From: Nitrospirota bacterium
Lineage (GTDB): Bacteria > Nitrospirota > UBA9217
Reading direction: 5' to 3'
Assembly: GCA_963796285.1 (NCBI GenBank)
Contig: CAWCKW010000003.1
Location: forward strand, 1-64,000
DNA length: 64,000 nucleotides
This document shows positions 6,021 to 61,924 of the stretch, one piece after another (the first letter of the stretch is position 1; each line of letters opens with the position of its first letter). Made by a program: the position numbers and the translations under genes. The notes below the pieces were generated by a model. It saw nothing but the letters and a program-made list of their open reading frames with translations. It was not told the origin of the DNA and made no database searches.

Positions 6021-7041
6021 TTACACAAATATCTTCTCCGGCATAAACAGCACCTCGTCGCGCATTACGTAATACGCTGCTCTCGCCAGCTTGTGCGCAA
6101 GGGCGTTGTGCGCGGCCATGAAGTTGGTTTTCTGCATCTTGCGATTATAGTATGTCCTTGCCTGGGTGTAGCTGCGCCGGGCATGCTCGGCTGCCTCGGA
6201 ATAGGCCCATGCAAGATACTTGTTGCCGCTCTTTTTGTTCCCTTTGCCTTTTACCTTGTCGTTGCTGAGCCATTTGCTTGAAACTTTCCGGCAGTATAGA
6301 TACGTAGTTGCCAACCTTGGCGAAGCGGCTGATCGGCCCGGTCTCCAGCATGATGGTCAGCGCCAGAATCTTGCCGATCCCGAATACGCTCTGCAGCTTC
6401 TCGTAAGGTGGCTTCAGCTCTACCTTATTTTCTATCACTGCCTCGATCTTTTTGATCTGGCGCGTCAGAAAATCGATGGACTCTTTGCTGACCATCCCCG
6501 CCAGAGCCAAGTCAGCGCTTCCCGCAAGAAAGGGGGTCACTCGATCCTCGGTCAGTATTTTTACATCGCTCGTCTTGAGCTTAAATCCGTTGTTGCGGCT
6601 GAGGATGTTCTGCAGGCTCACGATGAGTGAGGTTCGCAGTCTTACCAGGTGCATGCGTTTTCGCAGAAGATCGCGTATCGGCCGGTCTTCCTTCGGATAG
6701 ATGTAACCCTCGGGCAGAATCCCCAGCCGCAGCATTTCTGCCAGCCAGAAGGCGTCGTGCTGATCGTCGGCGAATTTTAGCCCGGTGTATTTCTTGATCG
6801 CTGCCGGATTGGCCAGATGAACGTGGTAACCTTCACCCATCAGCAGGTCAACCAGCCAGTACCAGTTATAGGTCGATTCCACAACGATACCGGCGATGTC
6901 ATTCTTGTACGGGTTGAGCGCCGCCTGAATACGCTCTCGATCATTCGGCAGCTTCTGTTTATATACCCGCTTGCCGGATTCGTCGATGATGCCGAGATAA
7001 CTGTTGCTTGAATGTAGATCTAATCCAGTGTACAATTTCAT
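6021..7041 (-). CDS. IS110-family transposase/recombinase; frameshift near 6300
   Basis: 'YTGLDLHS', 'VESTYNW', 'DDQHDA', 'GIGKILALTI'. C-terminal 'KKSGNKYLAWAYSEAA' in 6021-6314. Confidence 0.92.
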
Positions 7042-7132: not shown

Positions 7133-7693
7133 TCAAGTCTTGCGGCTTGACATTCCCCGCTTCCGGGCTTTTTTATAAACCGCCTGACTCTCCTTTACGA
7201 TAAAACCAATTTTCCTCTTCGGCTTTTCCTCAACTTCTATCAATTGACGAATCGCTTCAAAAACGATCTGGAACTGCCCGTCATATTTCTTCTCCAATTC
7301 AGCCAGCTTCCGGGCCAGGTCCTTATGGGACGCGATCATCTCCCTCAGCTGTGTGAATGTTCTCATGATCTGAATGTTCACCTGGATCGCCTTGGGGCTA
7401 TTCAGAATGCTTGACAGCATCGCCACCCCGTTTTCCGTAAATGCGTACGGGAGATACCTCCTGCCTCCCCATCTTGAGGTGCCAAAATGGTACTTCAAGT
7501 TGTCGAACTCTTCTTTCGTCAGCTGTACCATGAAATCATCAGGAAAGCGATCAAGATTTCTTTTGACCGCACGCACCAGCATCTTCGTTTCAACGCCATA
7601 GAGCGCTGCCAGATCGCTGTCCAGCATCATCTTCTGGCCGCCGATCAACAAGATCTTCTTTTCAATCACCTCTATTGGCACGAGTGCTTTCAT
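7133..7693 (-). CDS. ORF6N (KilA-N-like) domain protein
   Basis: '[27 protein letters not shown]', '[16 protein letters not shown]', C-terminal 'KRKIGF'. Confidence 0.9.
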
Positions 7694-9177: not shown

Positions 9178-9430
9178 TGACCTCGTCGGGTCGACCTGCT
9201 AACTCCGCTGCGGCGGCAGCGAAATTATCTTCTGTATATGAAAAGAACATAGCAGGTGAAAGTTGTCTTGTCAATACGACGAAAGTTCGGATGTCCTGTC
9301 GTTCTTTCCTGTTTCCCGGTACGAGTGCTATACTTTAAGCATGAAGGCTTCTCTAAATGGTTAGAAAGCAGGTATGGTGGAGGGTTCTGCAACTTTTTGA
9401 TAACAAGAACAGACGAAAGGAGTAATCATC

Positions 9431-9958
9431 ATGAAAGAGGAACTCACAAATAGGAATGGCTCGATCCTGACGCTGGTTCTGGCAGGCGGTGCTCTGGGGG
9501 CCGGGTTGGCACTGGCACTGGCGCCGAAACCGGGAAACGAGATCAGGAAAGACCTTAGACGGGTAGCCGACCGTTTCTCACAGGCCGTTGATATTGGCAA
9601 GGACCTCTATGGAGAGAGCCGGGTGTTTGTCGGCAAGGCCGTTGAAGCGAGCAAGAAGGCCTACGTGGAGGAAAAGCCCCTTGAGCCCATAAGAATCGGG
9701 ATGCGCTCTCTCCTGGTGCCGATCCTTGCGAGCGGTATCATCGGGGCAGGCATTGCGCTCCTGCTGGCGCCGAAGTCGGGAACCGCGACCAGGAATGATT
9801 TGAAACGGCTCGCAACGACCACGCGGGAAGGCGTTGTTTCCGCTATTGACGCGGGCAAGGACCTCTACGTGGCAGGCAAAGACGCGATAACCGGGGCAGT
9901 GGAATCAAGCAAGATACCGTATGTCGAAGGGAAAAAGGATATTATGCATGCAGTGTAG
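9431..9958 (+). CDS. YtxH-domain protein (two repeats), copy 1
   Basis: Two 'GAGxALxLAPKxG' YtxH motifs; paralogue at 47920. Confidence 0.85.
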   Translation: MKEELTNRNGSILTLVLAGGALGAGLALALAPKPGNEIRKDLRRVADRFSQAVDIGKDLYGESRVFVGKAVEASKKAYVEEKPLEPIRIGMRSLLVPILASGIIGAGIALLLAPKSGTATRNDLKRLATTTREGVVSAIDAGKDLYVAGKDAITGAVESSKIPYVEGKKDIMHAV

Positions 9959-9975
9959 CAGGGTGTAGGGTTCAC

Positions 9976-10031
9976 TTGAGGTGCCAAAATGGCACCTCAA
10001 GTTGTCGAATACCGCCATAGAGCGCTGCCAG
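9976..10031 (-). pseudogene. internally deleted relic of an ORF6N gene
   Basis: Joins near-identical matches to 7473-7507 and 7595-7612. Confidence 0.7.
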
Positions 10032-10042
10032 TCTGCGTCATC

Positions 10043-10640
10043 TTTCTTGCGTGCCCAAGAAAGGTGACAAAGCATAAGTAAGCCCCTGCCAGGAAGTCCA
10101 CGATCCTTGTTTTTTTTCTGCACCCCAGTTCACAGGTCCGCGCAGTCATGCTTTGATCTTGCCAATTATCATCCTTTTCTGCTGTCGCAGCGCTCCACCC
10201 TCACCCTTTAAAAAGGGTTCGGCCGCGTCTGCCTGGTCTTGTGGGTTAATTATCTTTATCGAGCATCGCATGTTGTGCGCGAACCTGTTCATGGGATGCA
10301 GGGGGTTTTGGAAAGGCAGTTGGATTCGGGTAAGGATCTGCACGACGGTTTTCTTTCAGCCCCCCATGCGAAAATTTAGGCAGGCGACTGAGTCCGAGGG
10401 TAAAGCATTTCGGACTGTCTGAGCCCGACGCAGGGCGAGTTTCCGAAATGTACTGAGGACGATTGAGCATGCCGTAAAGAATTTTCGCCGGGTGCCCTTC
10501 TTTGGGTCACCTTTCTTGGGCAAGCAAGAAAGGTGACAAAGTATAAGCAAGTCCATGCCAGGAAGTCCACGATCCTTTTTTTTTCTGCACCCCAGTTCAC
10601 AGTTCCGCGCAGTCATGCACTGATTGTTACCAACTATCAG
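10043..10640 (-). repeat. about 1.4 units of the ~428-bp structured repeat, inverted
   Basis: Reverse complement of the 15-16.5 kb array units with a different linker. Confidence 0.9.
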
Positions 10641-10763
10641 AAGCTCCGACCCCGCATGTCCCCGGAGAAGATCCATAACTTTCATTTGCCCTGATAAACC
10701 CAATCACCTATAATAGGAATAGACAGCATATCACTCCAATACCATCAACATCTCAGGCATGCA

Positions 10764-13700
10764 ATGACATCCCGCAAAAAAATACTCCTCTGGTCCTCCG
10801 GCATCGTTGGCCTGGTAACGGCTTTGCTGATCGCTGTTATCGTCCTGGCGCCGATGTATCTGGACTCTCAGGGAGTGAAAAACAAGATCCAGGCCGCGGT
10901 TTCGGAAAAACTCGGCGGAAAAGTCTCCTATGAAAGGATCGACGTTTCGCTCTTTCCCCTGCCTCACGTGATCATCAGGCAATTATACCTGGCCTATCCC
11001 CGGACATTCAGCGGTCAGCTGCAGTCCATCACTATCTATCCCCACCTGTTCCCGCTCTTCAGGGGCAAGCTCCAGTTTTCGAAGATCCAGGTCCAGGAGC
11101 CGGACTTCACCATCGTCCTTCCCGCCGTGGTATCTGAATCGACGCCTACGGCTCCGTCTCTCGAGGAAACGAAAGCGAATATCCGGGCCGTGCTTGGATA
11201 CCTGCAGACGATCGGCCCCGGTCTTGTCGTTGAAATGGACAACGGCAAATTCCTGTTCAAACGGAGCAACCGGGATTTTCTCTCCCTTCGGAACGTGACC
11301 GTGCATTTCAACGCACCGCCCGGCGAGATGAAACTCCTGGTCAAGGCCGGCACGGACCAGTGGGGGGATTTTAGCCTGAGCGGGGCATACTCCTTTACCG
11401 AAGCGCAATCAGAGGTCAGGGATCTGACCGTGTCCCTGGGCCACTCTTCCCTCCAGGACTATTCCGGTGTCCTGACCTGGGACCGGGTCCCGCGTTTTGA
11501 GATACGTTCGGGCAGGGCCGTGCTCGCGCTGCAGGAGATCTTCCAATGGCTTTCGTCATCGGAAAGCCTGGTCCCCTTTATGAAGGAGATGTCGTCGTTA
11601 AAAGGTCAGCTCACCATTCAGTCCATGCGCGGAGAGGGATCGGTCTCCGATCCAAAGAAATGGCGCTTGAGGCTGACCGGCGAGGCCCGGCATATTGAGA
11701 TCGAGTCGCCGCGGATCCCCGCACCCGTGATGATCGATACGCGTTTTATCCTGGAAGATAACCTGCTGGAGGTATCCGAACTGTCTGCCCGCCTGGGGAC
11801 GTCTACCCTGTCTCACGTGTCCGCGCAGCTTGTCGGGAGAAACGATCCCGAGCTCGAGATCCGGAGCGGCAACGCCGCGATCAATATCACCGAGGTCTTC
11901 GGCTGGCGGCAGTGGCATCCGGCATTGGAGCATTCTCTGCAGAAGGTCGACACGCTTGCCGGCAACTTCACCCTTACCTCGTTGAAATTGAAGGGGCCCC
12001 TGTTCCGGCCTGAGGAATGGAACATCAATGCCGGCGGCATGGTTGACCATATTGTTTTTAATTCTGCGTTCTTGCCCGGACAGCTCGGCCTGGTCAAGGG
12101 TAATTTCAGTTATGTTCCGGATAAACTGTCCTTTGCCATGAAGGAAGCCACGATCCTGGATTCGTCATTGACCGGCACAGCCGTGGTGAGCGGCGTTACC
12201 GATACCCTGCAAAGCATCGACCTGACCGTAAACGGGCAATCAGGCAGAAAGACCCTTGATTGGGTTTTTAAGGACCTCGAGCTTCCAGCCGCGCTGATGG
12301 TAAAGACCCCCCTTACCCTTGTTGATTCCCATCTGGTCTGGCAAAGGCAAACGGGCACATCCTTCAGGGGAACGGCATCCGTGGCAAACGGGCCGACGTT
12401 CTTCGTGGACCTTTCCCAGCACGGCCGGGACCTCGCGATCCGCCGTCTCTTGATCCAGGACCAGGAGACCAAGGCGTCCATTACTTTGAATTGGCAGAAG
12501 CAGGCAGCGGACTTCTCCCTGTCCGGTCTTCTGGCGCAGGCCACGCTGAGCAGAATATTCGAGCAGGGAAACTTCGGCAACGGGACCGTGCACGGCGATC
12601 TTCATGCCCTGGTCCGCACGGACCAGCCGCTCCGGTCGCGGGCAACGGGCACCCTTGCGGGGAATGACATTTTCATCCCCTGGGGCATGCCGATCCCGAC
12701 CATGGTGGACAAGTTCTCCCTCCATGCCGACGACGACGTGATCACCATCGACTCCGCCGACGTAACCTGGGGCACACATCATTACTCCATGTCCGGGGCC
12801 GCAACCACCTCTGACGAGGGGATCGCCTTCAGCATGGCCCTCACGGCGGACGGCATCGAGATACAGGCGATCCAGCAGGCCCTGGAGCAGGCAGGCACGA
12901 AAAGCACCGATCGACAAGCCAGGCCCTTTCCCATGCCGCCCATACGAGGCGACCTCCGTGCCGACTCTGCGTACGTTAAATTCGGACGCTTTACCCTTGC
13001 TCCCGCCCACGCCGTCATAACCGTGGATCCGGACAGGGTGAATATGGATTTTACCGACACCAGGACCTGCGACATTTCACTGCCGGGTTCACTCCTTATT
13101 TCCAGGGAAAGCATGTCTTTTACGTTCACCCCCACGGCAAAGAAAGAAACCCTGGGTTACACGATCTCCTGTCTAACCGGCATGGACGTTCATGTTACCG
13201 GCGAGTATGACCTGAACTCGAACTTCCAGGCGCACGGAACGGGGAAGGAGATCCTCTCTTCCCTGGAAGGCAGAGTGGATTTCAAGGCGCGGGACGGCAA
13301 GATCTACCGTTATCCGATCCTGCAAAAAATATTGTCCGTGTTGAGCGTGCTTGAAATATTTCGCGGAAGGATCCCGGACCTGGGGGGAAGCGGCTTCCCC
13401 TATCATTCCATGGCAATACGGGGAGATATCCACAAAGGAATATTCACGCTGGAGAAAGCCTACATCGGCGGAAAGTCTCTGGATATCATCGCTGAAGGCG
13501 AGATCGATCTGGGGAAGCAGAAGTTGGACGTCGTCGTGCTCGTGGCGCCTTTCTCGACGCTCAACTGGATCATCAGGAACACCCCGTTCCTCGGCAAGAT
13601 CATGGGCGGCACGCTGATTTCGATCCCGGTCCGGGTCTCCGGCGATCTGGCGAACCCCAACGTCGTCTTTCTCTCTCCCACGGCCGTGGGCTCGCGGATC

Positions 13701-13790
13701 CTGCGTCTCCTGGAGAACATCATCATGCTGCCGGTCGACATCATCTCGCCGATATTGCCGAAGGAAAAGGAACAGGAAAAGAAGAAGTGA
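10764..13790 (+). CDS. AsmA-like (bridge-type lipid transfer family) protein
   Basis: N-terminal TM anchor, beta-rich 1008 aa, AsmA_2-like C-terminus 'IPVRVSGDLANPNV'. Confidence 0.8.
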   Translation: MTSRKKILLWSSGIVGLVTALLIAVIVLAPMYLDSQGVKNKIQAAVSEKLGGKVSYERIDVSLFPLPHVIIRQLYLAYPRTFSGQLQSITIYPHLFPLFRGKLQFSKIQVQEPDFTIVLPAVVSESTPTAPSLEETKANIRAVLGYLQTIGPGLVVEMDNGKFLFKRSNRDFLSLRNVTVHFNAPPGEMKLLVKAGTDQWGDFSLSGAYSFTEAQSEVRDLTVSLGHSSLQDYSGVLTWDRVPRFEIRSGRAVLALQEIFQWLSSSESLVPFMKEMSSLKGQLTIQSMRGEGSVSDPKKWRLRLTGEARHIEIESPRIPAPVMIDTRFILEDNLLEVSELSARLGTSTLSHVSAQLVGRNDPELEIRSGNAAINITEVFGWRQWHPALEHSLQKVDTLAGNFTLTSLKLKGPLFRPEEWNINAGGMVDHIVFNSAFLPGQLGLVKGNFSYVPDKLSFAMKEATILDSSLTGTAVVSGVTDTLQSIDLTVNGQSGRKTLDWVFKDLELPAALMVKTPLTLVDSHLVWQRQTGTSFRGTASVANGPTFFVDLSQHGRDLAIRRLLIQDQETKASITLNWQKQAADFSLSGLLAQATLSRIFEQGNFGNGTVHGDLHALVRTDQPLRSRATGTLAGNDIFIPWGMPIPTMVDKFSLHADDDVITIDSADVTWGTHHYSMSGAATTSDEGIAFSMALTADGIEIQAIQQALEQAGTKSTDRQARPFPMPPIRGDLRADSAYVKFGRFTLAPAHAVITVDPDRVNMDFTDTRTCDISLPGSLLISRESMSFTFTPTAKKETLGYTISCLTGMDVHVTGEYDLNSNFQAHGTGKEILSSLEGRVDFKARDGKIYRYPILQKILSVLSVLEIFRGRIPDLGGSGFPYHSMAIRGDIHKGIFTLEKAYIGGKSLDIIAEGEIDLGKQKLDVVVLVAPFSTLNWIIRNTPFLGKIMGGTLISIPVRVSGDLANPNVVFLSPTAVGSRILRLLENIIMLPVDIISPILPKEKEQEKKK

Positions 13791-13810
13791 TTACGCTTCA
13801 GGGTTCAGGT

Positions 13811-14099
13811 GGGGGTAAAGCTATTCGATTCTGACGTTCACCTGCGCCGGGTAGCTCTGACGCGAAAGACGCGCATAGCAATGCTGCACAGATCGAAATG
13901 AGAGAACAAGACAAGGCAGACGCGGCCTCACCCTTGTAAAAGGGTGAGGGTGGAGCGCTGCGAGACCTGCATATCAGGGCGGAGGCACTGTTAATATACC
14001 TGGCATGCTGCGCGTCTAAGCGATGAGCTGCCCAAAAAAATCGATGCACACATGGAACAATCGCCAACTTAGATAACCTTCAGAAGACAGCTTGTTAAT
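13811..14099 (+). repeat. dispersed structured repeat, type B, copy 1
   Basis: Homologous to 61512-61844; long hairpin 13849-14033 followed by an A-tract. Confidence 0.85.
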
Positions 14100-14100
14100 C

Positions 14101-14216
14101 TCGCCGTCGGATCCTCTGCGCCAACAAGGCAAAAGACCATCACATCAATCTTGCCGGTTTTGTAAAAAGAGCAGAACGACACGTTTCGCAAAGCAACCCG
14201 GGACTATAGGACGTCC
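14101..14216. repeat. dispersed repeat type C, copy 1
   Basis: Shares TCGCCGTCGG..CCT.TGCGCC, CACATCAATCTTGCC and GCAACC.GGGA with 39241-39356. Confidence 0.7.
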
Positions 14217-14253
14217 CTAAAGATTTCCATCTCCAAAATTTTCCCAGCTCTGT

Positions 14254-14808
14254 TTATCCTGCCCGATGTCCGTGAAGGTGACCCTGGCGCGCATCCCGCA
14301 TAAGCTCAATGAACTTCGTTCGCTGTTCCGGCGTCAGTTTGGATTTTATCTCCTCCCGCGCCTTTATTGCATTGAGCATCATGGCGGTCTTGAAACCCTC
14401 CATCTTTTTTACCTGCGACTCAACAGCGCTCATATCCACGCTGTCCTTGCGGAGATACTCGCGAAACTCCATTGCCGCGATCTTGAGCTCCGCGCGCTTT
14501 TTGATCTCGTCCTTCCTCAGCGCGATACTGATATCATGTATCGCGGCCTTTTGGGCGGCAGTGAGGTCGAGCTGCTTGAGCGCATGCCATAGACGCCGGC
14601 CATGATGACCAGAGCCCGGGCCTCCTCTTTCAGACCAATGATGTGATGCCGGCCCGTCACACTGCTGTACCGGATCGCTGTCTCCCTTGACCCCATCGGG
14701 GTATCCTTTGTCGGCTGCGGATACCTGCGCGGCTGCTATGAGACCCAGACACAAGAAGCCTGCGGCAAGAAGAAGACCGTACATCCTTACCCTTATTACT
14801 TTGATCAT
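14254..14808 (-). CDS. Spy/CpxP-family periplasmic chaperone
   Basis: Signal peptide and two LTxxQ motifs (LDLTAAQ, LTPEQR). Confidence 0.85.
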   Translation of the reverse strand: MIKVIRVRMYGLLLAAGFLCLGLIAAAQVSAADKGYPDGVKGDSDPVQQCDGPASHHWSERGGPGSGHHGRRLWHALKQLDLTAAQKAAIHDISIALRKDEIKKRAELKIAAMEFREYLRKDSVDMSAVESQVKKMEGFKTAMMLNAIKAREEIKSKLTPEQRTKFIELMRDARQGHLHGHRAG

Positions 14809-15042
14809 TGTTGTTTCCTCCTTTGGAGTGATTTTGATGTTTCAGATATCCGTATGGACTGCCAAGCTTCATTTCCTTCGGCATGTTGCTGATGGTATAG
14901 ACCCGACCTGCTGGAAAAGGTTTAATAGACGCTTTCAATTCCGGTGACGTGCGGGGTTAGGGTAAAAAACTCTCATGTTTTTTGAGGGCCACGCCTGACG
15001 CACGGGTAAGGCCGAAGCTTTAGTTCTTTGCTTTTCCAGAGG

Positions 15043-16555
15043 CCCCTGCATCCCATGAACAGGTTCGCGCACAAGCATGCGATGCTCGATAAAGATAGTT
15101 AACCCACAAAACCAGGCAGACGCGGCCGAGCCCTGTTTACATGGCGAGGGTGGAGCGCTGCGACAGCAGAAGAGGGTGATAATTGGTAACATCAGTGCAT
15201 GCCTGCGCGGACCTGTGAACTGGGGTGCAGAAAAAAAACAAGGATCGTGGACTACCTGGCAGGGGCTTGCTTATGCTTTGTCACCTTTCTTGCGTGCCCA
15301 AGAAAGGTGACCCAAAGAAGGGCACCCGGCGAAAATTCTTAACGGCATGCTCAATCGTCCTCAGTACATTTCGGTCCGGAAATGCTTCACCCTCGGACTC
15401 AATCGCCTGCCTAAATTTTCGCATGGGGGGCTTCAAAGAAGTAAAGACTTAAAGCTTTCGGTTTTCCAAAACCCGCTGCATCCCATGAACAGGTTCGCGC
15501 ACCAGCATGCGATGCTCGATAAAGATAATTAACCCACAAGACCAGGCAGACGCGGCCGAGCCCTGTTTACATGGCGAGGGTGGAGCGCTGCGACAGCAGA
15601 AGAGGGTGATAACTCGTAACATCAGTGCATGCTGCGCGGACCTGTGAACTGGGGTGCAGAAAAAAACAAGGATCATGGACTACCTGGCAGGGGCTTGCTT
15701 ATGCTTTGTCACCTTTCTTGCGTGCCCAAGAAAGGTGACCCAAAGAAGGGCACCCGGCGAAAATTCTTCACGGCATGCTCAATCGTCCTCAGTACATTTC
15801 GGTCCGAAATGCTTCACCCTCGGACTCAATCGCCTGCCTAAATTTTCGCATGGGGAGGCTAAACGCGATATCCTCAGAGCTTTTGCCTTACCAAAACCCC
15901 CTGCATCCCATGAACAGGTTCGCGCACACGCATGCGATCCTGGATAAAGATAATTAACCCACAAGACCAGGCAGACGCGGCCGAGCCCAGTTTACATGGC
16001 GAGGGTGGAGCGCTGCGACAGCAGAAGAGGGTGATAACTGGTAACATCAGTGCATGCCTGCGCGGACCTGTGAACTGGGGTGCAGAAAAAAAAACAAGGA
16101 TCGTGGACTTCCTGGCAGGGGTTTGCTTTTTCTTTGTCACCTTTCTTGCGTGCCCAAGAAAGGTGACCCAAAGAAGGGCACCCGGCGAAAATTCTTCACG
16201 GCATGCTCAATCGTCCTCAGTACATTTCGGTCCGAAATGCTTCACCCTCGGACTCAATCGCCTGCCTAAATTTTCGCATGGGGAGGCTAAACGCGATATC
16301 CTCAAAGCTTTTGCCTTACCAAAACCCCCTGCATCCCATGAACAGGTTCGCGCACACAGCATGCGATGCTCGATAAAGATAATTAACCCACAAGACCAGG
16401 CAGACGCGGCCGAGCCCATGTTTACATGGCGAGGGTGGAGCGCTGCGACAGCTGAAGAGGGTGATAATTGGTAACATCAGTGCATGCCTGCGCGGACCTG
16501 TGAACTGGGGTGCAGAAAAAAAACAAGGATCGTGGACTACCTGGCAGGGGCTTGC
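15043..16555 (+). repeat. tandem array of ~428-bp structured units (3 full plus 1 partial) with variable linkers
   Basis: TGCATCCCATGAACAGG begins at 15047, 15477, 15902 and 16330 (periods 430, 425, 428). Confidence 0.95.
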
Positions 16556-16622
16556 ACAACAACAGAAAATAGAAAAGCCGCGTGTTTATTCCGTTGATCT
16601 CGTTCTCATTGCCCCTGATCTC

Positions 16623-17105
16623 TCATTGCCGCGCTAACGCAGGCTCTTTCTCAAAAATTATGACGGGATAGGAGTGATATATTGTTTCTTCTTTTACTTT
16701 CCAGCCCAATCTTGAATAGAACGGAACAGCAAGAGCGGCATCGGTGCTAAACAAAAACAATTTGCGTATTTCCAATTGTGCGGCCTTCTGCTCTATGGCC
16801 TTGACCAGGCTTGAGCCGATCCCTCTCCTTCTCCATGGTTCGGCCACGTGCAGGCTGGTAAGCCATGGCGTCAGGTCGCTTCTCGTCTCCATGTCGAAGG
16901 CCTTGAGAGAAACAGTGCCTATCGGTTCTCCTGCTTCGAGGGCGACGAGGGTAAGGGGCAGACTTTTTTTATTGACCCTCTCCCGGAGAAGGCCTTCAAA
17001 ATCCTGCAGCGTTGCCCCTGGATACAGATATGACCACTCGTTGTATATCCAGGCGGCAAGGACCGGTATTGTTTCCTGGTGATCTCCTAAATATTGAATA
17101 TCCAT
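16623..17105 (-). CDS. GNAT-family N-acetyltransferase
   Basis: 'LHVAEPWRRRGIGSSLV' acetyl-CoA motif and 'FYSRLGW'. Confidence 0.9.
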   Translation of the reverse strand: MDIQYLGDHQETIPVLAAWIYNEWSYLYPGATLQDFEGLLRERVNKKSLPLTLVALEAGEPIGTVSLKAFDMETRSDLTPWLTSLHVAEPWRRRGIGSSLVKAIEQKAAQLEIRKLFLFSTDAALAVPFYSRLGWKVKEETIYHSYPVIIFEKEPALARQ

Positions 17106-17414
17106 TTACGCACTGTTCTTTCATGGTAAATTCATTCGTAGTATATGCGTCGGCAAGAGGATCGTACCCATAACGCTTATTTCCTTAATGTCAAAATCTA
17201 ACCACAGAGTCCACAGAGAACTGCTTGAATTTAAGGGATATGAACTTCCTTGGCATCGCCTCTCCCTCTGTGCTCCTCCTATTTCATTCTCACGGCTCTT
17301 CAACCATGAGAGCACTATGCGTCGTATTGAAAGAAAGGCTCAATGTGTTCATGTTTACCACCGAGCGTTCCTCAGTGCACTCTGTGGTTTCATACTTTCC
17401 TCTTTGCACGATCA

Positions 17415-18161
17415 TCACTTTACTTCGTTCGCCGGGATAGCGTTGATCAATTCCCGGGTGGTCACGACCGTAGCCTGCCGGGGAAAAACCTTGTCCATCA
17501 AAACGCGGTTCACTTCCGCATCCGGGTCCGCGCAGGCATCTGACACGACCACGATGAAGTAATCCCAGTCAGCGGCCCAGCGTACCGTGGAAAGGACCAC
17601 GCCGCTCGTCGAGATGCCGAGCAGTACGAGGGTGTTGATATTTTTTGCGCGCAGGATCGTTTCCAGATCAGTGGTGGAAAAAGCCCCGACACGGCGCTTC
17701 GTGACCACGATATCTCCGGGTTCAGGCGCGACCCTGGCATGGATCTCGGCCCCGGATGTGCCTTCACGCAAGCGTCCCGATGCTTTTAAATTGCCGAAGA
17801 GCTTGTTGTGCGGATCGACCTCAGGGTAACCATCGCGAAAGCGCACAACGACATAGACAATGGGCAAATGGGCTTGCCGCGCCTTCTTGAGTATGGCGCC
17901 TGCTCTGTCCAGCAGGGGCGCTTGCATCTTCTCAGGCAGCATGCTGACGATATCATTCTGGTAGTCCATGATCAGTACCGCCGTTCTCGTTGTATTGATC
18001 GTAAGCGCCGGTTCGATCAATACGGCTGTTCTGGCGCTCGTATTGGCCGACCCCGGCATGCCGGCGCCTTTCTGCGTGTCCTGCTTGTCCACGGCGGCGA
18101 GCGCGTTCCCCGCTATGGACAGTGACACAACCAACAGTGAGATCATAACAATAGTGCGCAT
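17415..18161 (-). CDS. isochorismatase-family hydrolase with signal peptide
   Basis: 'TAVLIMDYQND', 'KRRVGAF', 'GISTSGVVLST'. Confidence 0.85.
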   Translation of the reverse strand: MRTIVMISLLVVSLSIAGNALAAVDKQDTQKGAGMPGSANTSARTAVLIEPALTINTTRTAVLIMDYQNDIVSMLPEKMQAPLLDRAGAILKKARQAHLPIVYVVVRFRDGYPEVDPHNKLFGNLKASGRLREGTSGAEIHARVAPEPGDIVVTKRRVGAFSTTDLETILRAKNINTLVLLGISTSGVVLSTVRWAADWDYFIVVVSDACADPDAEVNRVLMDKVFPRQATVVTTRELINAIPANEVK

Positions 18162-18331
18162 GTATCATACCCTCCTTCGCGAAACAGGAACGATAATAAC
18201 TTCTTACACTGCAATCGAATGGCTTTTGGATGTCGCGTCCGGCGATTGCCGGAGATTTATACAACCGGGTCCACCATATCCTGCGTGAAGTCTGCAATAA
18301 CCAATGCTGCCTGTGGAAAACACGTGCATGC

Positions 18332-18586
18332 TTAGTTCTCCGGGGGCGTATCTGCAGGCGCGGATTGCAGACAACTATTGAGACAACTGGTTAATGTGTC
18401 CTGGCTCTCCTGCACGCACTGAGCGCGCGCCTGATCAGGCTCTTCACCGGGTGGCGGGCAGGTTACATCCCTTGATGCTTTTTCGGCGGCACATCTTGTT
18501 TGGCACTCAGCGTTGGTCTCTGCGGAGCCCACACGAGGCAAAAGCAGCAACGTTCCGAATATGACGAGAATGAGGATTGATCGCAT
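18332..18586 (-). CDS. small secreted Cys-rich protein
   Basis: GGAGG RBS before MRSILIL, signal peptide, 6 Cys. Confidence 0.6.
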   Translation of the reverse strand: MRSILILVIFGTLLLLPRVGSAETNAECQTRCAAEKASRDVTCPPPGEEPDQARAQCVQESQDTLTSCLNSCLQSAPADTPPEN

Positions 18587-18854
18587 TGTCCCTCCTGTCG
18601 GGTTTGCAGGTACGAACCCTGCCGTTTTACAAGACAATTAAAACCATTACATATTATTTTATCATGACCTGATCGGCAAAACCAGGTTTTTTTGGCATAG
18701 TGTGCAGGATGAAACCCGCACGTTAAGCATAAGGATGGGGCATCCGCGTCGCGCCCGTATCGGCCCCGGCGACTCCTCAGATAACATGATATAATTCAGG
18801 CATGGACCCAAATCGACAAAGATTGTAGAACAGCAATTCCTGAAGGAGGTCAGT

Positions 18855-19784
18855 ATGCCGCAGCGTTCCCTGCTGGTCGCCGATGACATCGAGAACCAGA
18901 CTGATGCCGGGAAAAGACTGTCACAGGCGATTTTCAGTGTCGCCTCTTCGTTGGCGCAGCATTTGAAAACCGTTGTCGAGCTCCTGTATGTGGAAGACAG
19001 CAAGTCCTATCCCCGCGCCAAGATCGATCCCGCCGGCATCCAGGCATGGCATGCCGGACATCAGAAGACCCTCGAAGAGGCCGGCAGGCGGCTCCAGGTC
19101 CCTGTTCGCTGTTCACTGGCGAGCGGCTCTCCCGCTGAGCAGATCTTGACGAAACTTCAGTCCCGCCCTGCACCTGAACTCGTGATCGTAGGCACCCGGG
19201 GCCTGAAAGGATTGAAGCGCTTGTTCATCGGAAGCGTCGCTGAAGAAGTGATCCGTTACGCCAGGCGGCCCGTGATGGTGATCGGGCCGAATGCCCGGAA
19301 GAAAGAACTCTTGCTCGTCGGACGGAAGCAGGCGGGCATCCTCGTCCCGACCGACCTCGGCAAGAACAGCAGGGCCGCCGAGCTCTATGCAATCTCTCTG
19401 GCCAAGCGCATCGGGGCCCGGGTGGTCCTGTTTCATTGTCTTGGGGACAATTACCACGCCATCGTCGACCAGAGCATGGCCTCCGGCATGATCCCGTTCA
19501 ACATCGAAAACGTGCTGGACGAGCTTCGGGAGGATGCCATCAAGTCGCTCAAACAGAAAGCCGGTAATTTTCAAAAACACGGCGTTCCCTGTGAATATAG
19601 GATCGAAGAAAGCGTGGCCCTGTCCTCCTGCGCCGTTCATCAGGAGAGTGACCAGGGCTATTCGTTCATAGTCATGGGGACCCACGGCAGGAACGTCCTG
19701 CTGCAGGCCTTTATTGGAAGCACTGCCCGCGAAACGATCCTGAACGCCCCGATCCCGGTGATCACGGTCCATGCCGGGAAATAG
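18855..19784 (+). CDS. universal stress protein (tandem Usp domains)
   Basis: Two 'GxxG....GS.A' Usp motifs; AGGAGG RBS. Confidence 0.9.
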   Translation: MPQRSLLVADDIENQTDAGKRLSQAIFSVASSLAQHLKTVVELLYVEDSKSYPRAKIDPAGIQAWHAGHQKTLEEAGRRLQVPVRCSLASGSPAEQILTKLQSRPAPELVIVGTRGLKGLKRLFIGSVAEEVIRYARRPVMVIGPNARKKELLLVGRKQAGILVPTDLGKNSRAAELYAISLAKRIGARVVLFHCLGDNYHAIVDQSMASGMIPFNIENVLDELREDAIKSLKQKAGNFQKHGVPCEYRIEESVALSSCAVHQESDQGYSFIVMGTHGRNVLLQAFIGSTARETILNAPIPVITVHAGK

Positions 19785-19919
19785 CATTTCCGAAGTGCGC
19801 GAAATGCATGATAGCATTATGTCAAAATCCAACCACGAGTTCACAAAGAAGGGCTGAAGAATGGCTGAGGTTATTTTTGAATGGGGGGAACCCCGGGGAC
19901 TGTGTGTCTCAAGCCTGAA

Positions 19920-20739
19920 TTATTCCCCCTGCTGATCAGGGAGAGATCTCATGGAATAGAGGATCTGCAGGATACTGAGAGCGGTTAGGATCCCCAAGAG
20001 CGCGATCCCGGACAGGACGAACGCGAGGGCCCCTGCCGCAATGGCAAGAACAGCCAGCATATACTGCGGCAGGACAAAACGAAGCGCCGCATCAGGCGGT
20101 TTGCCGGGGTATGAAGAGAGAAAGATCGTATTCAAGGAAAGCATGCAGACCCCTGCGGAGGCACTCAGGATAAAGGCCTCCTGGACCGGCATCATCGCGT
20201 ACGGCGCCAGCACGATCACCCGCTTGACCCCGACGGCAATGGATACGATACCCAGCGTCAGCGGCAGGTGAGAATACAGCCATTGCTGATATGCCCTGAC
20301 ATGATCCCTCGATAGGAAGGACAGCCGGTATGTGTTGTCCGGCGCGATAATATTCAGCCACCAGGATGAGACGGACCGCCGCATACGACAGGGCAAAACC
20401 AATGGAGCTTTGTCCAAGGGCATGCGGCACGTGCACGATGAGGGAAGCCACGGCCACGATCTGTGCCATCGTCAGAAGCCTGTGGACAAGGTCATCGGAA
20501 TCAAATCTGGTCAGATAAAAGGTCTGGCCGACCCAGGCCCACCAGACAGGTACAAGGAGAATGGTGAAATGCAGCGATCCTCTCAATGAGTAATCGCTCG
20601 CGAGGTTTCCAGCCAGCTGGGATATGGCCGCGACAAAAACAAGGTCATAGAAGAGCTCCAGCCAGGTCGCATGCCTCTCCCGTTCCTCAGCAACATCGGT
20701 CCTGAGCCTCGGCGGTTTGATGAGTCCCTTCGTGAGCAT
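19920..20739 (-). pseudogene. ltrA: low-temperature requirement A (LtrA)-family membrane protein with apparent internal deletion and frameshift
   Basis: 'ATWLELFYDLVFVAAISQL' at the N-terminus. C-terminal 'WLYSHLPL' lies in another frame and the central part seems missing. Confidence 0.7.
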
Positions 20740-20775
20740 GCTATCTCATGACCTGTCAGTATTCCACCGTACTTT

Positions 20776-21020
20776 GGGTAACGCTCCGGGATTCTGACGT
20801 TCGGAGGCCCCTGCATCCCGTGAACAGTCCCGCGCACAAGCATGCGCAAACAGTCATGACCGATGCCATCACAAAAACAGGCAGACACGGCCGAGCCCGT
20901 TTGAACGGGCAAGGGGAAGTGCTGCGATATTCGAAGATGCTTATTGACGGCACTGGCAATGCATGCCTGCGCGGACTGTGAACCGGGGTGCAGAAAAAAA
21001 AGAAAAACATCGTGCGCTGC
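20776..21020 (+). repeat. diverged single copy of the ~185-nt hairpin repeat
   Basis: Hairpin 20811-20993 plus A-tract, with compensatory changes relative to the array. Confidence 0.85.
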
Positions 21021-21192
21021 CTGCAAGGAGTCGTCTTTGCTGATGATCCCTGACGTTCGGCCGGCTCGCTGCACGCAAACGTGAAATGTTATCCGCTTGT
21101 TATGGAGATGATTCAATTCCTTTAACACAGCGGAATGGGTGGCTAAATCATGTCGTATCAGGATACCGGGTACATGCTTACTTATGGATCGT

Positions 21193-22101
21193 CTACTTGT
21201 GCTTTATGAACGTTCCGTTCCGGTATTCTTCGAACGCGACTTCCAGCTCCTCATCGGTGTTCATCACGATCGGGCCGTACCAGGCTACCGGTTCGTTGAT
21301 GGGCTTGCCTGATACGAGCAGGAAGCGGACCGGCTCGCCCTGGGACGAGACGGTCACCTGATCGCCGTCGCTGAAAAGAACCGCCGTGCCGTTGTGGATG
21401 TATTTGTCCCGCTTCATGTCGAAATAGTTTTCACCCAGGGCATCATAGGCATAGGGGTTCTTCTCATTGCAGAAGACGCCCTTCCCGCCGATCACGTAGG
21501 CGAAGACCGTATGGCCGCGCGGTGTCTTGTGCATGAACTCGGAAAGCGCCGGGAGCGTCACATCGAGATACTCAGGATCGATGACGACGTCCCTGACCGG
21601 GCCCTGTTTTCCCTCCATGGTCCCGGCGATGACCTTGACCTTCGCGCCGTTCTTCATCACGACCTCCGGCACCTGCGCGCTCTTGACATCGCGGTACCGG
21701 GGGTCCATCATCTTGTGGGATTTGGGAAGGTTGGCCCAGAGCTGAAATCCCTCCATGACCCCGTTGTCGTCTCCCTGCGGCATCTCCTGGTGGATGATGC
21801 CGCTCCCCGCCGTCATCCACTGCATGTCTCCCGACGTGATAACGCCCTTGTTGCCCATGCTGTCGCCGTGCTCCACGTCGCCCTTGAGCACGTACGTGAT
21901 CGTCTCGATGCCCCGATGAGGGTGCCAGGGAAAGCCTTTGATGTATTGATACGGATCGGTGTTTCGAAAATCATCGAGCATCAGGAACGGGTCGAACAGC
22001 GGGACCTCGCTGTTTCCGAACACCCGCCTGAGATGGACCCCTGCTCCTTCGAGCGTAGGCCTGCTTTTGAACACTTTCCTGATCTTTCGGTTTTCCGTCA
22101 T
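21193..22101 (-). CDS. pirin-family protein
   Basis: 'GFPWHPHRGIETITY', 'WMTAGSGIIHQE', 'QLWANLP'. Confidence 0.95.
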   Translation of the reverse strand: MTENRKIRKVFKSRPTLEGAGVHLRRVFGNSEVPLFDPFLMLDDFRNTDPYQYIKGFPWHPHRGIETITYVLKGDVEHGDSMGNKGVITSGDMQWMTAGSGIIHQEMPQGDDNGVMEGFQLWANLPKSHKMMDPRYRDVKSAQVPEVVMKNGAKVKVIAGTMEGKQGPVRDVVIDPEYLDVTLPALSEFMHKTPRGHTVFAYVIGGKGVFCNEKNPYAYDALGENYFDMKRDKYIHNGTAVLFSDGDQVTVSSQGEPVRFLLVSGKPINEPVAWYGPIVMNTDEELEVAFEEYRNGTFIKHK

Positions 22102-23436: not shown

Positions 23437-23629
23437 ATACGCCTCCTTGATTGCATACTTTTTTATCACAACGGGTTTGAGCGTATCACGCTTGCCTTTA
23501 TAGTATAACAGAACAGCAGGCCATTCATGTTTAGGCCGGATCACTCCAGGGTCAGGAAGGGGCAGGAGTTCAGAGTTCGGAGTAAAAAAGGGGCCTGGAT
23601 AACCAGTCCCCTGTGTCCATTTTCCCAAA

Positions 23630-23657
23630 GAAAAAGCCCCTCATCTTCAAGGGGCTT
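23630..23657. terminator. hairpin matching the tmRNA-downstream terminator repeat
   Basis: AAAAAGCCCCTCATCTTCAAGGGGCTT, also near 51752, 53528 and 54662. Confidence 0.7.
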
Positions 23658-24477
23658 ATGCGTTACTTGGATTTAAATAAAACTCGAGTGGATCTTCCGT
23701 TCGATCGTTCTCTGACTTCAATTTCGCTGCTAAATTTTACGGCTCTTCAGTTTAAATATTAACACCACGTATGCTATGTTGGTAACCGGCATGAGCATGT
23801 CGGCAATAAAGGCCCCGATCGCCCCCGTTCTTTCCAGCGCCAAGAAATAGTTAAAAGAAATAATTAAATAAGGAACAGCAAAAGGGATCATTATCATCCA
23901 TAAACGGGGAAAGAAAGCTGCAACATTCATTGCTGAAGAATCTTGCGATTGGTTCTGTTGAGACCGGCTGTTTCCCCTGTCCGCACTATGATGCATGTCC
24001 TGACTCCTCTCGGCGCAGCAGTAAATATTTCCTCTGTCGGTATAACTATAACTATACATATATTAAATGTCAAGACAATTAAAATTGGTTATATTCAGGG
24101 ATATACGAGCGTCCTTCTATTTGAAAGCGAGTGAATATGTCCCGGCATGTCTCCCGTTATCAGATTAATGCCGGCCCGACTTGTTGCATGGACAAAAATG
24201 ACATAAATCAAAACATTGATAGTTTAACGACCCACACAAAAGTCAGAAGACCCATATTTTTGAATATACCCTTAACCTACGCCGACAATTTATATCTGTC
24301 CATAAATCTTGCCCATGCGTGTGATCAATAAAATGGTTCTATCCTTCCTTGAACATCTTTACTGTTCGACTAATTGTGCGATATGTTTAATTTGCAATAC
24401 TTATAAAATAGGTTATTATAGTTTGTATCCAAACTGGATAAATCTGCGATGCAACGGAGATCGGCTACACCAAAACC

Positions 24478-47437: not shown

Positions 47438-47919
47438 TCAATCTCTCCTGTTCTTAAACAATACTTCACGGCTGCTATTATGTCCGTCTTACAAATTCTA
47501 TTTCGCGAAAGGGTGAAACTGATCGGCCGACAGCAGGAAGAATATAACAGAATGCGCTAAATAGCAAGCAGAGTTGATTGGTTCAGGGGTCAGGGGTCAG
47601 GGGGATGCAGTGCGGAATTCGGAATGCGGATTTCGGAATGGAAACATCTGCGTGCTCCGCGGTGAACATCTTGTTACACAACAAGAAAGAGAACCAGGGA
47701 ATCGCACAAACATGGTCGAGCAGCAATACAACCTTCGTCGTAGATATGCCCTGAGCAGCCGCTTCCTGTCCCCTTTTTCCCTCTTAATGCTGATATCCTG
47801 TTGTTCTCTCCCGTTTCCCGGTACGAGTGCTATACTATCAGTATGAACACGTGAAAGCAGGCGTGAAGCAGGGTTCTCAACCCTTTTGAGAATAGTGACG
47901 GAAGAAAGGAGTAATAATT

Positions 47920-48447
47920 ATGAAAGAGGAACTCACAAATAGGAAAGGCTCGATCCTGACGACGGTTCTGGTGGGCGGTGCCGTGGGGGCCGGGTTAGCG
48001 CTCGTGCTGGCGCCGAAATCGGGAAGTGAGATCAGGAAAGACCTGAAGCGGGTCGCCAACCGGTTCACACATGCCGTTGATATCGGCAAGGACCTCTACG
48101 GAGAGGGCAGAGAGTTTGTCGGCAAAGCCGTTGAAGCCGGCAAGAAGGCCTACGTGGAGGAAAAGCCCCTTGAGCCCATAATCAGTGAGAGGGGCTCACT
48201 CGTGGTACCGATCCTGGCGGGCGGTATCATCGGGGCAGGCATTGCGCTCCTGCTGGCGCCGAAGTCGGGAAGCGAGACCAGGGCTGACCTGAAGCAGTTC
48301 GCATCGACCACACGGGAAAAGGTTGGGTCCGCCATTGATAAGGGCAAGGACCTCTACGTGGCAGGCAAAGGCGCGATCACGGAGGCCGTGGTAGCAGGCA
48401 AGAAAGCGTACATCGAAGAGAAGGAGGAAATTTTGCGTGCAATGTAG
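47920..48447 (+). CDS. YtxH-domain protein, copy 2
   Basis: Same length as, and highly similar to, 9431-9958. Confidence 0.85.
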   Translation: MKEELTNRKGSILTTVLVGGAVGAGLALVLAPKSGSEIRKDLKRVANRFTHAVDIGKDLYGEGREFVGKAVEAGKKAYVEEKPLEPIISERGSLVVPILAGGIIGAGIALLLAPKSGSETRADLKQFASTTREKVGSAIDKGKDLYVAGKGAITEAVVAGKKAYIEEKEEILRAM

Positions 48448-48726
48448 CAACAGGCGGTTCCGGGAGTGCGCTCGGAGGGTGATGCTTATGCCCCCTGAGT
48501 GCATTTCAGGGACGTGGCTTCCTTCGTTGCATAACGCTTATTCGACCACTCGCTCCAGACTCAATAGGTCTTTACTCAAGACATCCCCCGCTTCCCGCCC
48601 GTCCGATACACTACCCGGCTCTCATTCACCCCGTTAGAATTTGGAAACGCTTCAATCGTTTTATAAATATCTTTTGCCCATGCCTGTCTTTAGATATTTT
48701 TCACGTGCCGTAGCATCTTGTTCATG

Positions 48727-54721: not shown

Positions 54722-55075
54722 TGGTGGAGGCGGCGGGAATTGAACCCGCGTCCGAAAACCGTCAGCCAGAAGCTCATACATGCTTATCCCCGCTTTTATT
54801 GCTCTCGCTTCATCCGGCGCCTTGGGGAAAGCTTCGGAATCGGCCAGCCCGGTTTTTCTTATCTCCCCGCCCCGGACGGCGTCGGGAAGACCAGCCTGGT
54901 TTTTGACATCTCTGCGATCGTTCAGGCGCCAACCGCGAGACGCGCTACCTATTTAGGCGGCGTATGCCAGTTCTTGATTATTGGCAGTTGATCTTTACCA
55001 TGTGTTTAACGAGCCCCATGGTACCTCGGCATGCAACTCCTGACCTCTAAATCCCCGTCGAAGCCTGTCGCCCCC
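54722..55075 (-). ncRNA. ssrA: tmRNA
   Basis: 5' GGGGGCGACAGGCTTCGACGGGG, 3' TTCAATTCCCGCCGCCTCCACCA, tag ANNQELAYAA*. Confidence 0.97.
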
Positions 55076-61511: not shown

Positions 61512-61844
61512 GGGGTAAAGCTATTTGATTCTGTCTTTCCCCTGCGCCGGGCAGCTCTGACGCGAAAGACGCGCATAGCAATGCTGCATTGATCGTAGTT
61601 ACGAGTACAAGACAAGGCAGACACGCCCTGCACTCGCGACGTGGCGCTCGTAAACGCTGGGTGCAGGCGGCCTCACCCTTTTATAAGGGTGAGGGTGGAG
61701 TGCTGCGAGACCTGCATATCAGGGCGGAGGTACTGTTAATATACCCGCCATGCTGCGCGGCTGAGCGATGAGCTGCCCAAAAAAAACGGTGCACATCTGG
61801 GGTAAGTACCAACTTAGATAACCTTCATAAGACAGATTGTTAAT
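61512..61844 (+). repeat. dispersed structured repeat, type B, copy 2, with a ~45-nt hairpin insertion
   Basis: Homologous to 13811-14099; extra segment ~61622-61667. Confidence 0.85.
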
Positions 61845-61924
61845 GAAGAATAAAAAGCGATACCTGCTATTAAGTGACCCACATAAAGTCAGAAGATCCA
61901 AAAAAGCTTGCTTCTGTTCCCGTC

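Follow-up and report, generated by a model that had tools for sequence, protein, structure and literature searches.

The stretch of DNA analysed here, called the window, comprises positions 1 to 64,000 (forward strand) of contig CAWCKW010000003.1 from a Nitrospirota bacterium (GenBank assembly GCA_963796285.1). It contains several copies of a hairpin of about 185 nt, of types A, B and C (collectively H), which is a non-coding repeat present in many copies and specific to a single lineage, one family of Nitrospirota. The first of four successive type A copies lies at 15046-15230 (+ strand, 185 nt; minimum free energy (MFE) -83.2 kcal/mol, z score -5.49), a type B hairpin at 13849-14033 (+, 185 nt; MFE -82.3 kcal/mol, z score -4.25), and a type C hairpin with A-like stems at 20811-20993 (+, 183 nt; MFE z score -5.19). 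When each type was tested separately, none of 200 shuffled sequences folded as well. An earlier note on this DNA, made from the sequence alone, had picked out these three hairpins at the same positions and lengths, with an A-run after each. It also described a common core with CGCGCA/TGCGCG pairing, three versions of the outer stem and two apical hairpins, and all of these are present in our alignment. Our covariance model (CM), R1, was built from 14 rows of types A and C only, and matches the first type A copy with 220.8 bits and the type C copy with 202.5 bits. It also recovers B copies at full length (60.7 bits for the one at 13.8 kb), so that types A and B, which the note had treated as versions of one structure, are alignable under a single model.

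The further copies that had been listed near 10.1, 15-16.5 and 61.5 kb are real as well. R1 matches three more type A hairpins behind the first (15476-15659, 15901-16085 and 16329-16515, all +), and a reversed type A copy at 10118-10301 (-) is followed by a unit of a second repeat, S, and a truncated A copy (10577-10639). Sequence comparison places another type B hairpin at 61549-61778 (+), with a 41-nt mini-hairpin (61627-61667) in its core. The 20.8-kb copy does combine A-like stems with the type B leader: the leader that precedes the 13.8-kb B hairpin (13808-13848, +) also precedes this copy, the common part lying at 20791-20810 (+), and a second copy of the leader's ~12-nt core lies after the element, at ~21050. 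This copy groups with copies from genomes G005, G006, G018 and G023, and type C is the partner of B within the mobile units of sister species, described below.

What follows the two B hairpins already points beyond the hairpin itself. The A-run and truncated tail at 14034-14099 (+) are homologous to the left-arm tail of an ISL3-type MITE (miniature inverted-repeat transposable element), and form a repeat shared with 61667-61844; this tail is also kept in the composite units of the sister species, G001. At 61779-61899 (+), an A-run and tail lead into an ISL3-type terminal inverted repeat (TIR; 61874-61899), and the segment aligns with the left ends of MITEs from G001 and G005 and of an ISL3 element from a sister-genus genome, G018. 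The earlier note was right about the hairpin family and missed its place within larger mobile and tandem repeats.

The note had also pictured each hairpin as a stem around a two-sided central loop, with the two strands of the loop (~35 nt each) as the variable parts. These strands do vary between types, but they are not simply open, since they partly pair together within each type; a short helix of 3 bp within the 3' inner strand (helix 7) covaries as well. The overall shape is a rod with a side hairpin, rather than a stem around an open two-sided loop.

The window's own genome (G000, 3.58 Mb) has 21 matches to the hairpin by BLAST and 22 by CM search, in five regions, and CM searches of its relatives give 0 to 37 copies per genome. 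Within the family, it was found in 27 of 64 genomes, which represent 12 of 19 genera. Sampling across the phylum found it in 12 of 27 genomes of this family versus none of 123 genomes from 21 other families. When the core pattern was searched over a species-level genome collection, 60 stretches were returned, 48 labelled Nitrospirota or Nitrospirae and 12 otherwise; two of the latter are full elements from one metagenome-assembled genome labelled Betaproteobacteria, and the remaining 10 have no common stems and look like chance occurrences in GC-rich DNA. Rfam holds no matching family for the hairpin, and our literature searches on MITEs in Nitrospirae or Nitrospirota turned up nothing relevant. 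Equivalent intergenic spots of a close relative, G004 (around AsmA/YhdP-like and LTXXQ genes), carry hairpins of other types or in opposite orientation, which argues for fast turnover.

ISL3-type composite units and their autonomous partner

The larger context is clearest in G001, where 16 composite units were aligned from 20 loci fetched. In each unit a type B and a type C hairpin lie on opposite strands, their 5' ends directed at one another across a spacer of ~25-90 nt. Overall, the units of the sister species, with B and C or A back to back, measure 600-750 bp. Those of G001 end in imperfect inverted repeats beginning GGCTCTTC / GGGTCTTC, and short AT-rich direct repeats lie just beyond these ends. 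Examination of 30 loci in G001 and G005 yielded 14 TIR pairs, whose 8-bp flanks are identical in 7 of 14 cases and match at at least 7 of 8 positions in 9 of 14.

A full ISL3 element of 1380 bp is found in two copies in G018 (PF01610, 241 bits; a transposase of 383 residues), flanked by 8-bp duplications TTTTTTCT and TGATTAAT. Its ends align with both ends of the G001 and G005 composite units, left/right asymmetry included; the hairpins do not fit within this insertion sequence, which has no room for them. Given the matching ends, the 8-bp duplications and the full ISL3 element, the composite units are ISL3-type MITEs, with the hairpins as cargo. An ISL3 element with a derived 187-nt MITE is also described for Microcystis aeruginosa, with an inverted terminal repeat starting GGCTCTTCG and 8-nt duplications (PMC11448079). 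The architecture of the Nitrospirota system, i.e. its repeat nature, the MITEs, the ISL3 ends, the duplications and the matching autonomous element, is a matter of direct observation.

Only two ISL3-type ends occur in the window. One is the TIR at 61874-61899 that follows the 61.5-kb B copy, and on its sequence this copy is identified as one arm of an ISL3-type MITE. The other, at 24208-24253 (-), belongs to a different element; no hairpin module adjoins it, and it probably terminates another MITE. Near it lies the repeat D9 (23605-23661), which recurs at 51.7, 53.5 and 54.6 kb. The B copies of the window are remnants of MITE arms, the one at 13.8 kb keeping only part of the tail.

Tandem array, modules and neighbouring genes

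In this genome type A has multiplied in tandem arrays with S. From 15043 to 16555 (+), type A alternates with the rod-like S in an array of 3.5 units with a period of 428 (95% matches in Tandem Repeats Finder). S consists of a ~140-nt rod and a perfect 13-bp hairpin, and occupies the spacers at 10345-10545 (-) and 15239-15456 as well as the other spacers of the array; it folds on both strands, with z scores of -3.7 and -4.4. Pieces of S have matches of 88-94% identity in many places of the sister genomes, one of which, G008, is devoid of H. Pairing of H with S is seen in other genera too, and in G018 an upstream hairpin related to S accompanies H.

Type B combines the core of type A with different stems, and several other genera have the outer stems of A almost unchanged with the apical core replaced. 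As judged by such comparisons of sequence, stems and apical cores behave as exchangeable modules. Smaller pieces are inserted as well: a mini-hairpin repeat of 39-41 nt has four copies in G000 (61627-61667, C6:10501, C13:148231 and C13:611938), each directly after CACRC, and G005 copies of both types hold similar inserts at the same position of the core.

The hairpin module is ~190 nt long, or ~250 nt when a conserved ~20-nt 5' flank and an A-run with a ~25-nt 3' flank are included. These flanks are conserved across genera, the 5' flank having been derived from 47 dereplicated copies, and the A-run is nearly fixed in length and then gives way to conserved sequence. The 47 dereplicated upstream regions have no conservation beyond -20 and no conserved -35/-10 elements. 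A promoter of extracytoplasmic-function (ECF) or sigma-54 type, which three copies had suggested in the leader, was discarded because of this lack of conservation beyond -20, and a small open reading frame (ORF) of 25 codons in the array spacer was discarded because its 10.4-kb copy has a stop at codon 3.

Among the neighbouring genes, an IS110-family transposase gene (PF01548) lies at 6145-7041 (-) and an ORF6N-domain gene at 7133-7693 (-); fragments of the latter are also found next to the hairpin copy at 10.1 kb (9970-10030). The LtrA gene at 19920-20739 (-) is split into two ORFs, and since G004 is 363 bp longer here, the window's copy of LtrA carries a deletion. An alcohol dehydrogenase gene beside the hairpin cluster of C12 is likewise split. 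Farther off, paralogous YtxH-like genes at 9364-9960 and 47853-48450 have internal repeats (D4, D5 and D11) and are 83% identical in DNA, and the tmRNA gene at 54722-55075 (-; RF00023, 191.8 bits) has copies of terminator-like repeats (D9/D10) on its flanks.

Covariation, strand preference and drift of copies

Covariation was counted in two alignments, both of them fitted to the model and composed of kindred copies, so that the counts are strong but are not to be read as probabilities. Among 90 CM-aligned copies from four genomes, 94.9% of cells are paired, versus 85.8% upon shuffling and 20-44% when the partners are slid, and both sides have changed in 24 of 36 pairs. The separate set, 27 copies from other genera, gives much the same picture, with 91.9% of cells paired versus 80.6% shuffled and 28-45% slid, and with both sides changed in 25 of 36 pairs.

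The fold also has a preferred strand. G-U occupies 220 cells versus 22 for A-C, and reaches high frequency at six pair positions, while A-C does so at none. The strand bearing the A-run is the more stable when folded, relative to its complement, in 82 of the 90 copies, by a mean of 7.7 kcal/mol. The excess of G-U and the strand bias together point to a single-stranded fold of the A-run strand, be it RNA or DNA, rather than to the symmetry of double-stranded ends.

Single copies have a different history. Among 19 type C copies of G001, substitutions per site per copy are 0.035 at paired and 0.037 at unpaired sites, and changes at paired sites broke the pair 43 times and kept it 32 times, with G-U and A-C arising 20 and 17 times. 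For 16 type A copies of G000 the rates are 0.024 paired and 0.036 unpaired, with 31 pairs broken and 15 kept, and 7 G-U and 6 A-C arising. The 13 type B copies of G001 have rates of 0.048 and 0.087, with 34 broken and 31 kept, and 11 G-U and 12 A-C. Pairs are thus broken by recent substitutions no less often than they are left intact, and single copies therefore drift. The statement of the earlier note that selection acts on structure therefore holds between lineages, where compensatory changes, G-U bias and strand bias support it, but not for individual copies, with their pair-breaking substitutions. With the fold kept between lineages while copies drift neutrally, it would matter for the success of the repeat lineage rather than at each locus.

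Explanations and closest known systems

We think it probable that a single explanation covers these observations: the hairpin is a mobile and tandem repeat module, carried as cargo by ISL3-type MITEs, whose fold is maintained at the level of the lineage and serves as a cis-acting RNA rod. An ISL3 DDE transposase would move the composite units in trans, and the type A arrays may have grown by unequal recombination. Through read-through from neighbouring genes, the module would form a stable RNA rod, which may act in cis on transcript stability or processing, and insertions would thereby be made tolerable. Such cis action of a hairpin on transcripts has been proposed for ERIC and Correia elements. 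The cis-acting RNA role is the one we favour, and we infer it from the strand bias together with the lack of a conserved promoter and of sigma-70-like sites or terminators.

Several findings weigh against parts of this explanation. On the side of mobility, most copies of the window, namely those of the A array and those at 10.1, 13.8 and 20.8 kb, have no TIR or target duplication of their own, being arrays or remnants, and the copy-richest genomes (G000, G001, G004 and G005) have no ISL3 transposase. Across the family, the hairpin and ISL3 do not co-occur at the level of Pfam: nine of the 64 family genomes have both the hairpin and PF01610, 18 the hairpin only, 16 ISL3 only and 21 neither, a count to be read with the provisos that MITEs can outlive their partner and that many of the 64 genomes are incomplete. 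Comparison with G004 gave no clean empty site, and at 20.8 kb that genome keeps a leader-like remnant. On the side of the fold, recent substitutions hit paired and unpaired sites alike, with G-U arising about as often as A-C, and folded single-stranded DNA would yield the same strand bias as RNA. Sigma-70-like promoters are absent from 13600-16700 (0 found vs 2.0 expected), and there is no convincing terminator. Finally, the hairpins of ten G001 MITEs are 94-95% identical, versus 70-83% for their tails and TIRs. Pure neutral decay does not predict this gap, which could be explained by gene conversion among copies or by constraint on each copy.

Two features stand out: conservation is far higher in the hairpins than in the ends of the transposons carrying them, and across genera it is one particular strand whose fold is preserved. 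A more novel reading is that the rod functions as a single-stranded nucleic acid, likeliest RNA, either because its fold is needed for MITE spread or tolerance, or because the host has adopted it as a many-copy regulatory RNA; we consider this unlikely.

Another way to account for the good conservation of the hairpins relative to the surrounding MITE tails and TIRs is a true small-RNA gene family, trans-acting or protein-binding via the apical core with its tandem G-A pairs, that hitch-hikes on the MITEs; many copies would then be expressed, and host or element would make use of the RNA. The apical core is conserved, with exchanges of A-U and G-C within it, one strand is favoured for the fold, conservation across genera extends to the 3' flank and ~20 nt of 5' flank, and the divergent B/C layout with a short common spacer recurs in two genera, all of which speaks for such genes. 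However, promoter elements are not conserved beyond 20 nt upstream, the region lacks a sigma-70-like site or terminator, and A's, not U's, follow the hairpin. Copy number ranges from 0 to 37 in one genus, with zero in a sister genome that is 100% complete, and in distant genera the core is wholly replaced. Pairing is ignored by recent substitutions, and searches of Rfam gave no match of any family to the hairpins, at gathering thresholds or at E<=10 (9900-21200). On balance, we regard a family of small-RNA genes as unlikely.

The fold might instead be one of DNA, single-stranded or cruciform, recognized by a recombinase or HUH protein, or left from the inverted ends of an older foldback MITE, in which case the covariation would reflect symmetry at the DNA level. 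Across genera, conservation is highest in the outermost 35-40 nt of the two arms while interiors are swapped, a pattern typical of transposon ends; G-T is the mildest mismatch in DNA hairpins too, and CACRC is the fixed insertion site of a related mini-hairpin, even within the core. Y1 (HUH/RAYT) transposase genes were found in four of the five genomes tested; G004, with 14 copies of the hairpin, had no match (89% completeness). The hairpin ends have no target duplication or variable flank, the flanks being conserved and asymmetric, and covariation extends along the entire rod and into the apical hairpin instead of being confined to the tips. Moreover, if inverted ends were recognized as double strands, no preference for G-T above A-C would be expected on one strand. 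We therefore hold a DNA fold to be quite improbable. The 190-nt element is also far larger than the repetitive extragenic palindromes (REPs) that accompany RAYTs.

Two other kinds of repeat were set aside. An A-tailed retroelement resembling a short interspersed element (SINE) is not indicated, as reverse transcriptase family PF00078 was matched in one of five genomes, far from any copy. An array like that of integron attC sites, suggested by the 428-nt array, was rejected on inspection by eye, without an integrase search: there are no R'/R'' motifs, and the copies are divergent in the MITEs.

That the hairpin is a 6S-like or guide-type RNA (an IS110 bridge RNA or TnpB/IscB omega RNA) with programmable variable loop strands, a possibility the earlier note had raised and one that suits a ~185-nt rod with variable inner strands on both sides, is contradicted by several results and very hard to credit. 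As for 6S RNA, the 22 copies are not a single housekeeping gene, RF00013 has no match at gathering threshold in the window nor at E<=10 over 9900-21200, and the canonical 6S gene lies elsewhere, at C12:1524125-1524304 (103.5 bits). As for guides, TnpB is found in none of five genomes, on which ground an omega RNA is rejected. IS110 genes occur in all five, with four of 15 matches, including the one of the window, within ~6 kb of hairpin clusters. They never adjoin copies, the nearest being ~3 kb off, and the IS110 of the window has a 5' region with no relation to the hairpin, so a bridge RNA is rejected too. In the surroundings of the clusters, 54 ORFs were scanned with Pfam, which found no recombinase, nuclease or transposase, only ordinary, partly decayed genes. 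Within each type the inner strands stay constant from copy to copy. Hairpins with 94-95% identity are found at sites whose 8-bp duplications differ, which means that the targets cannot be specified by the loops, a conclusion reached without a direct scan for complementarity.

A false lead is thereby removed, in that there is no novel 6S-like or guide RNA here, and the family offers a worked example of how covariation, the usual mark of RNA genes, can arise in mobile repeats. The hairpin is like 6S RNA (RF00013) in its ~185 nt and rod shape, and unlike it in being present in many copies, in the partial pairing of its inner strands and in having no conserved open bubble. ERIC/IRU, Correia/NEMIS and the bcr1 repeats of Bacillus cereus are intergenic imperfect palindromes of 100-200 nt with optional internal insertions, vary in copy number between related species, and are presumed to act as cis-acting RNA hairpins. 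The likeness is one of such features, with no sequence relation shown, and the Nitrospirota hairpin differs in being limited to one family, in its modular cores and stems and in its encoded A-run. A further system close to this one is the 187-nt ISL3 MITE of Microcystis aeruginosa (PMC11448079), which is likewise non-coding and multi-copy, with TIRs that begin GGCTCTTC, 8-bp duplications, a full ISL3 with matching ends, and a predicted stem-loop fold. The window's genome lacks an ISL3 transposase, and the Nitrospirota unit is larger than the Microcystis MITE, its 600-750 bp holding two divergent ~190-nt rods with a common covarying core, rods that are found without the MITE as well, both in tandem arrays and alongside other partners.

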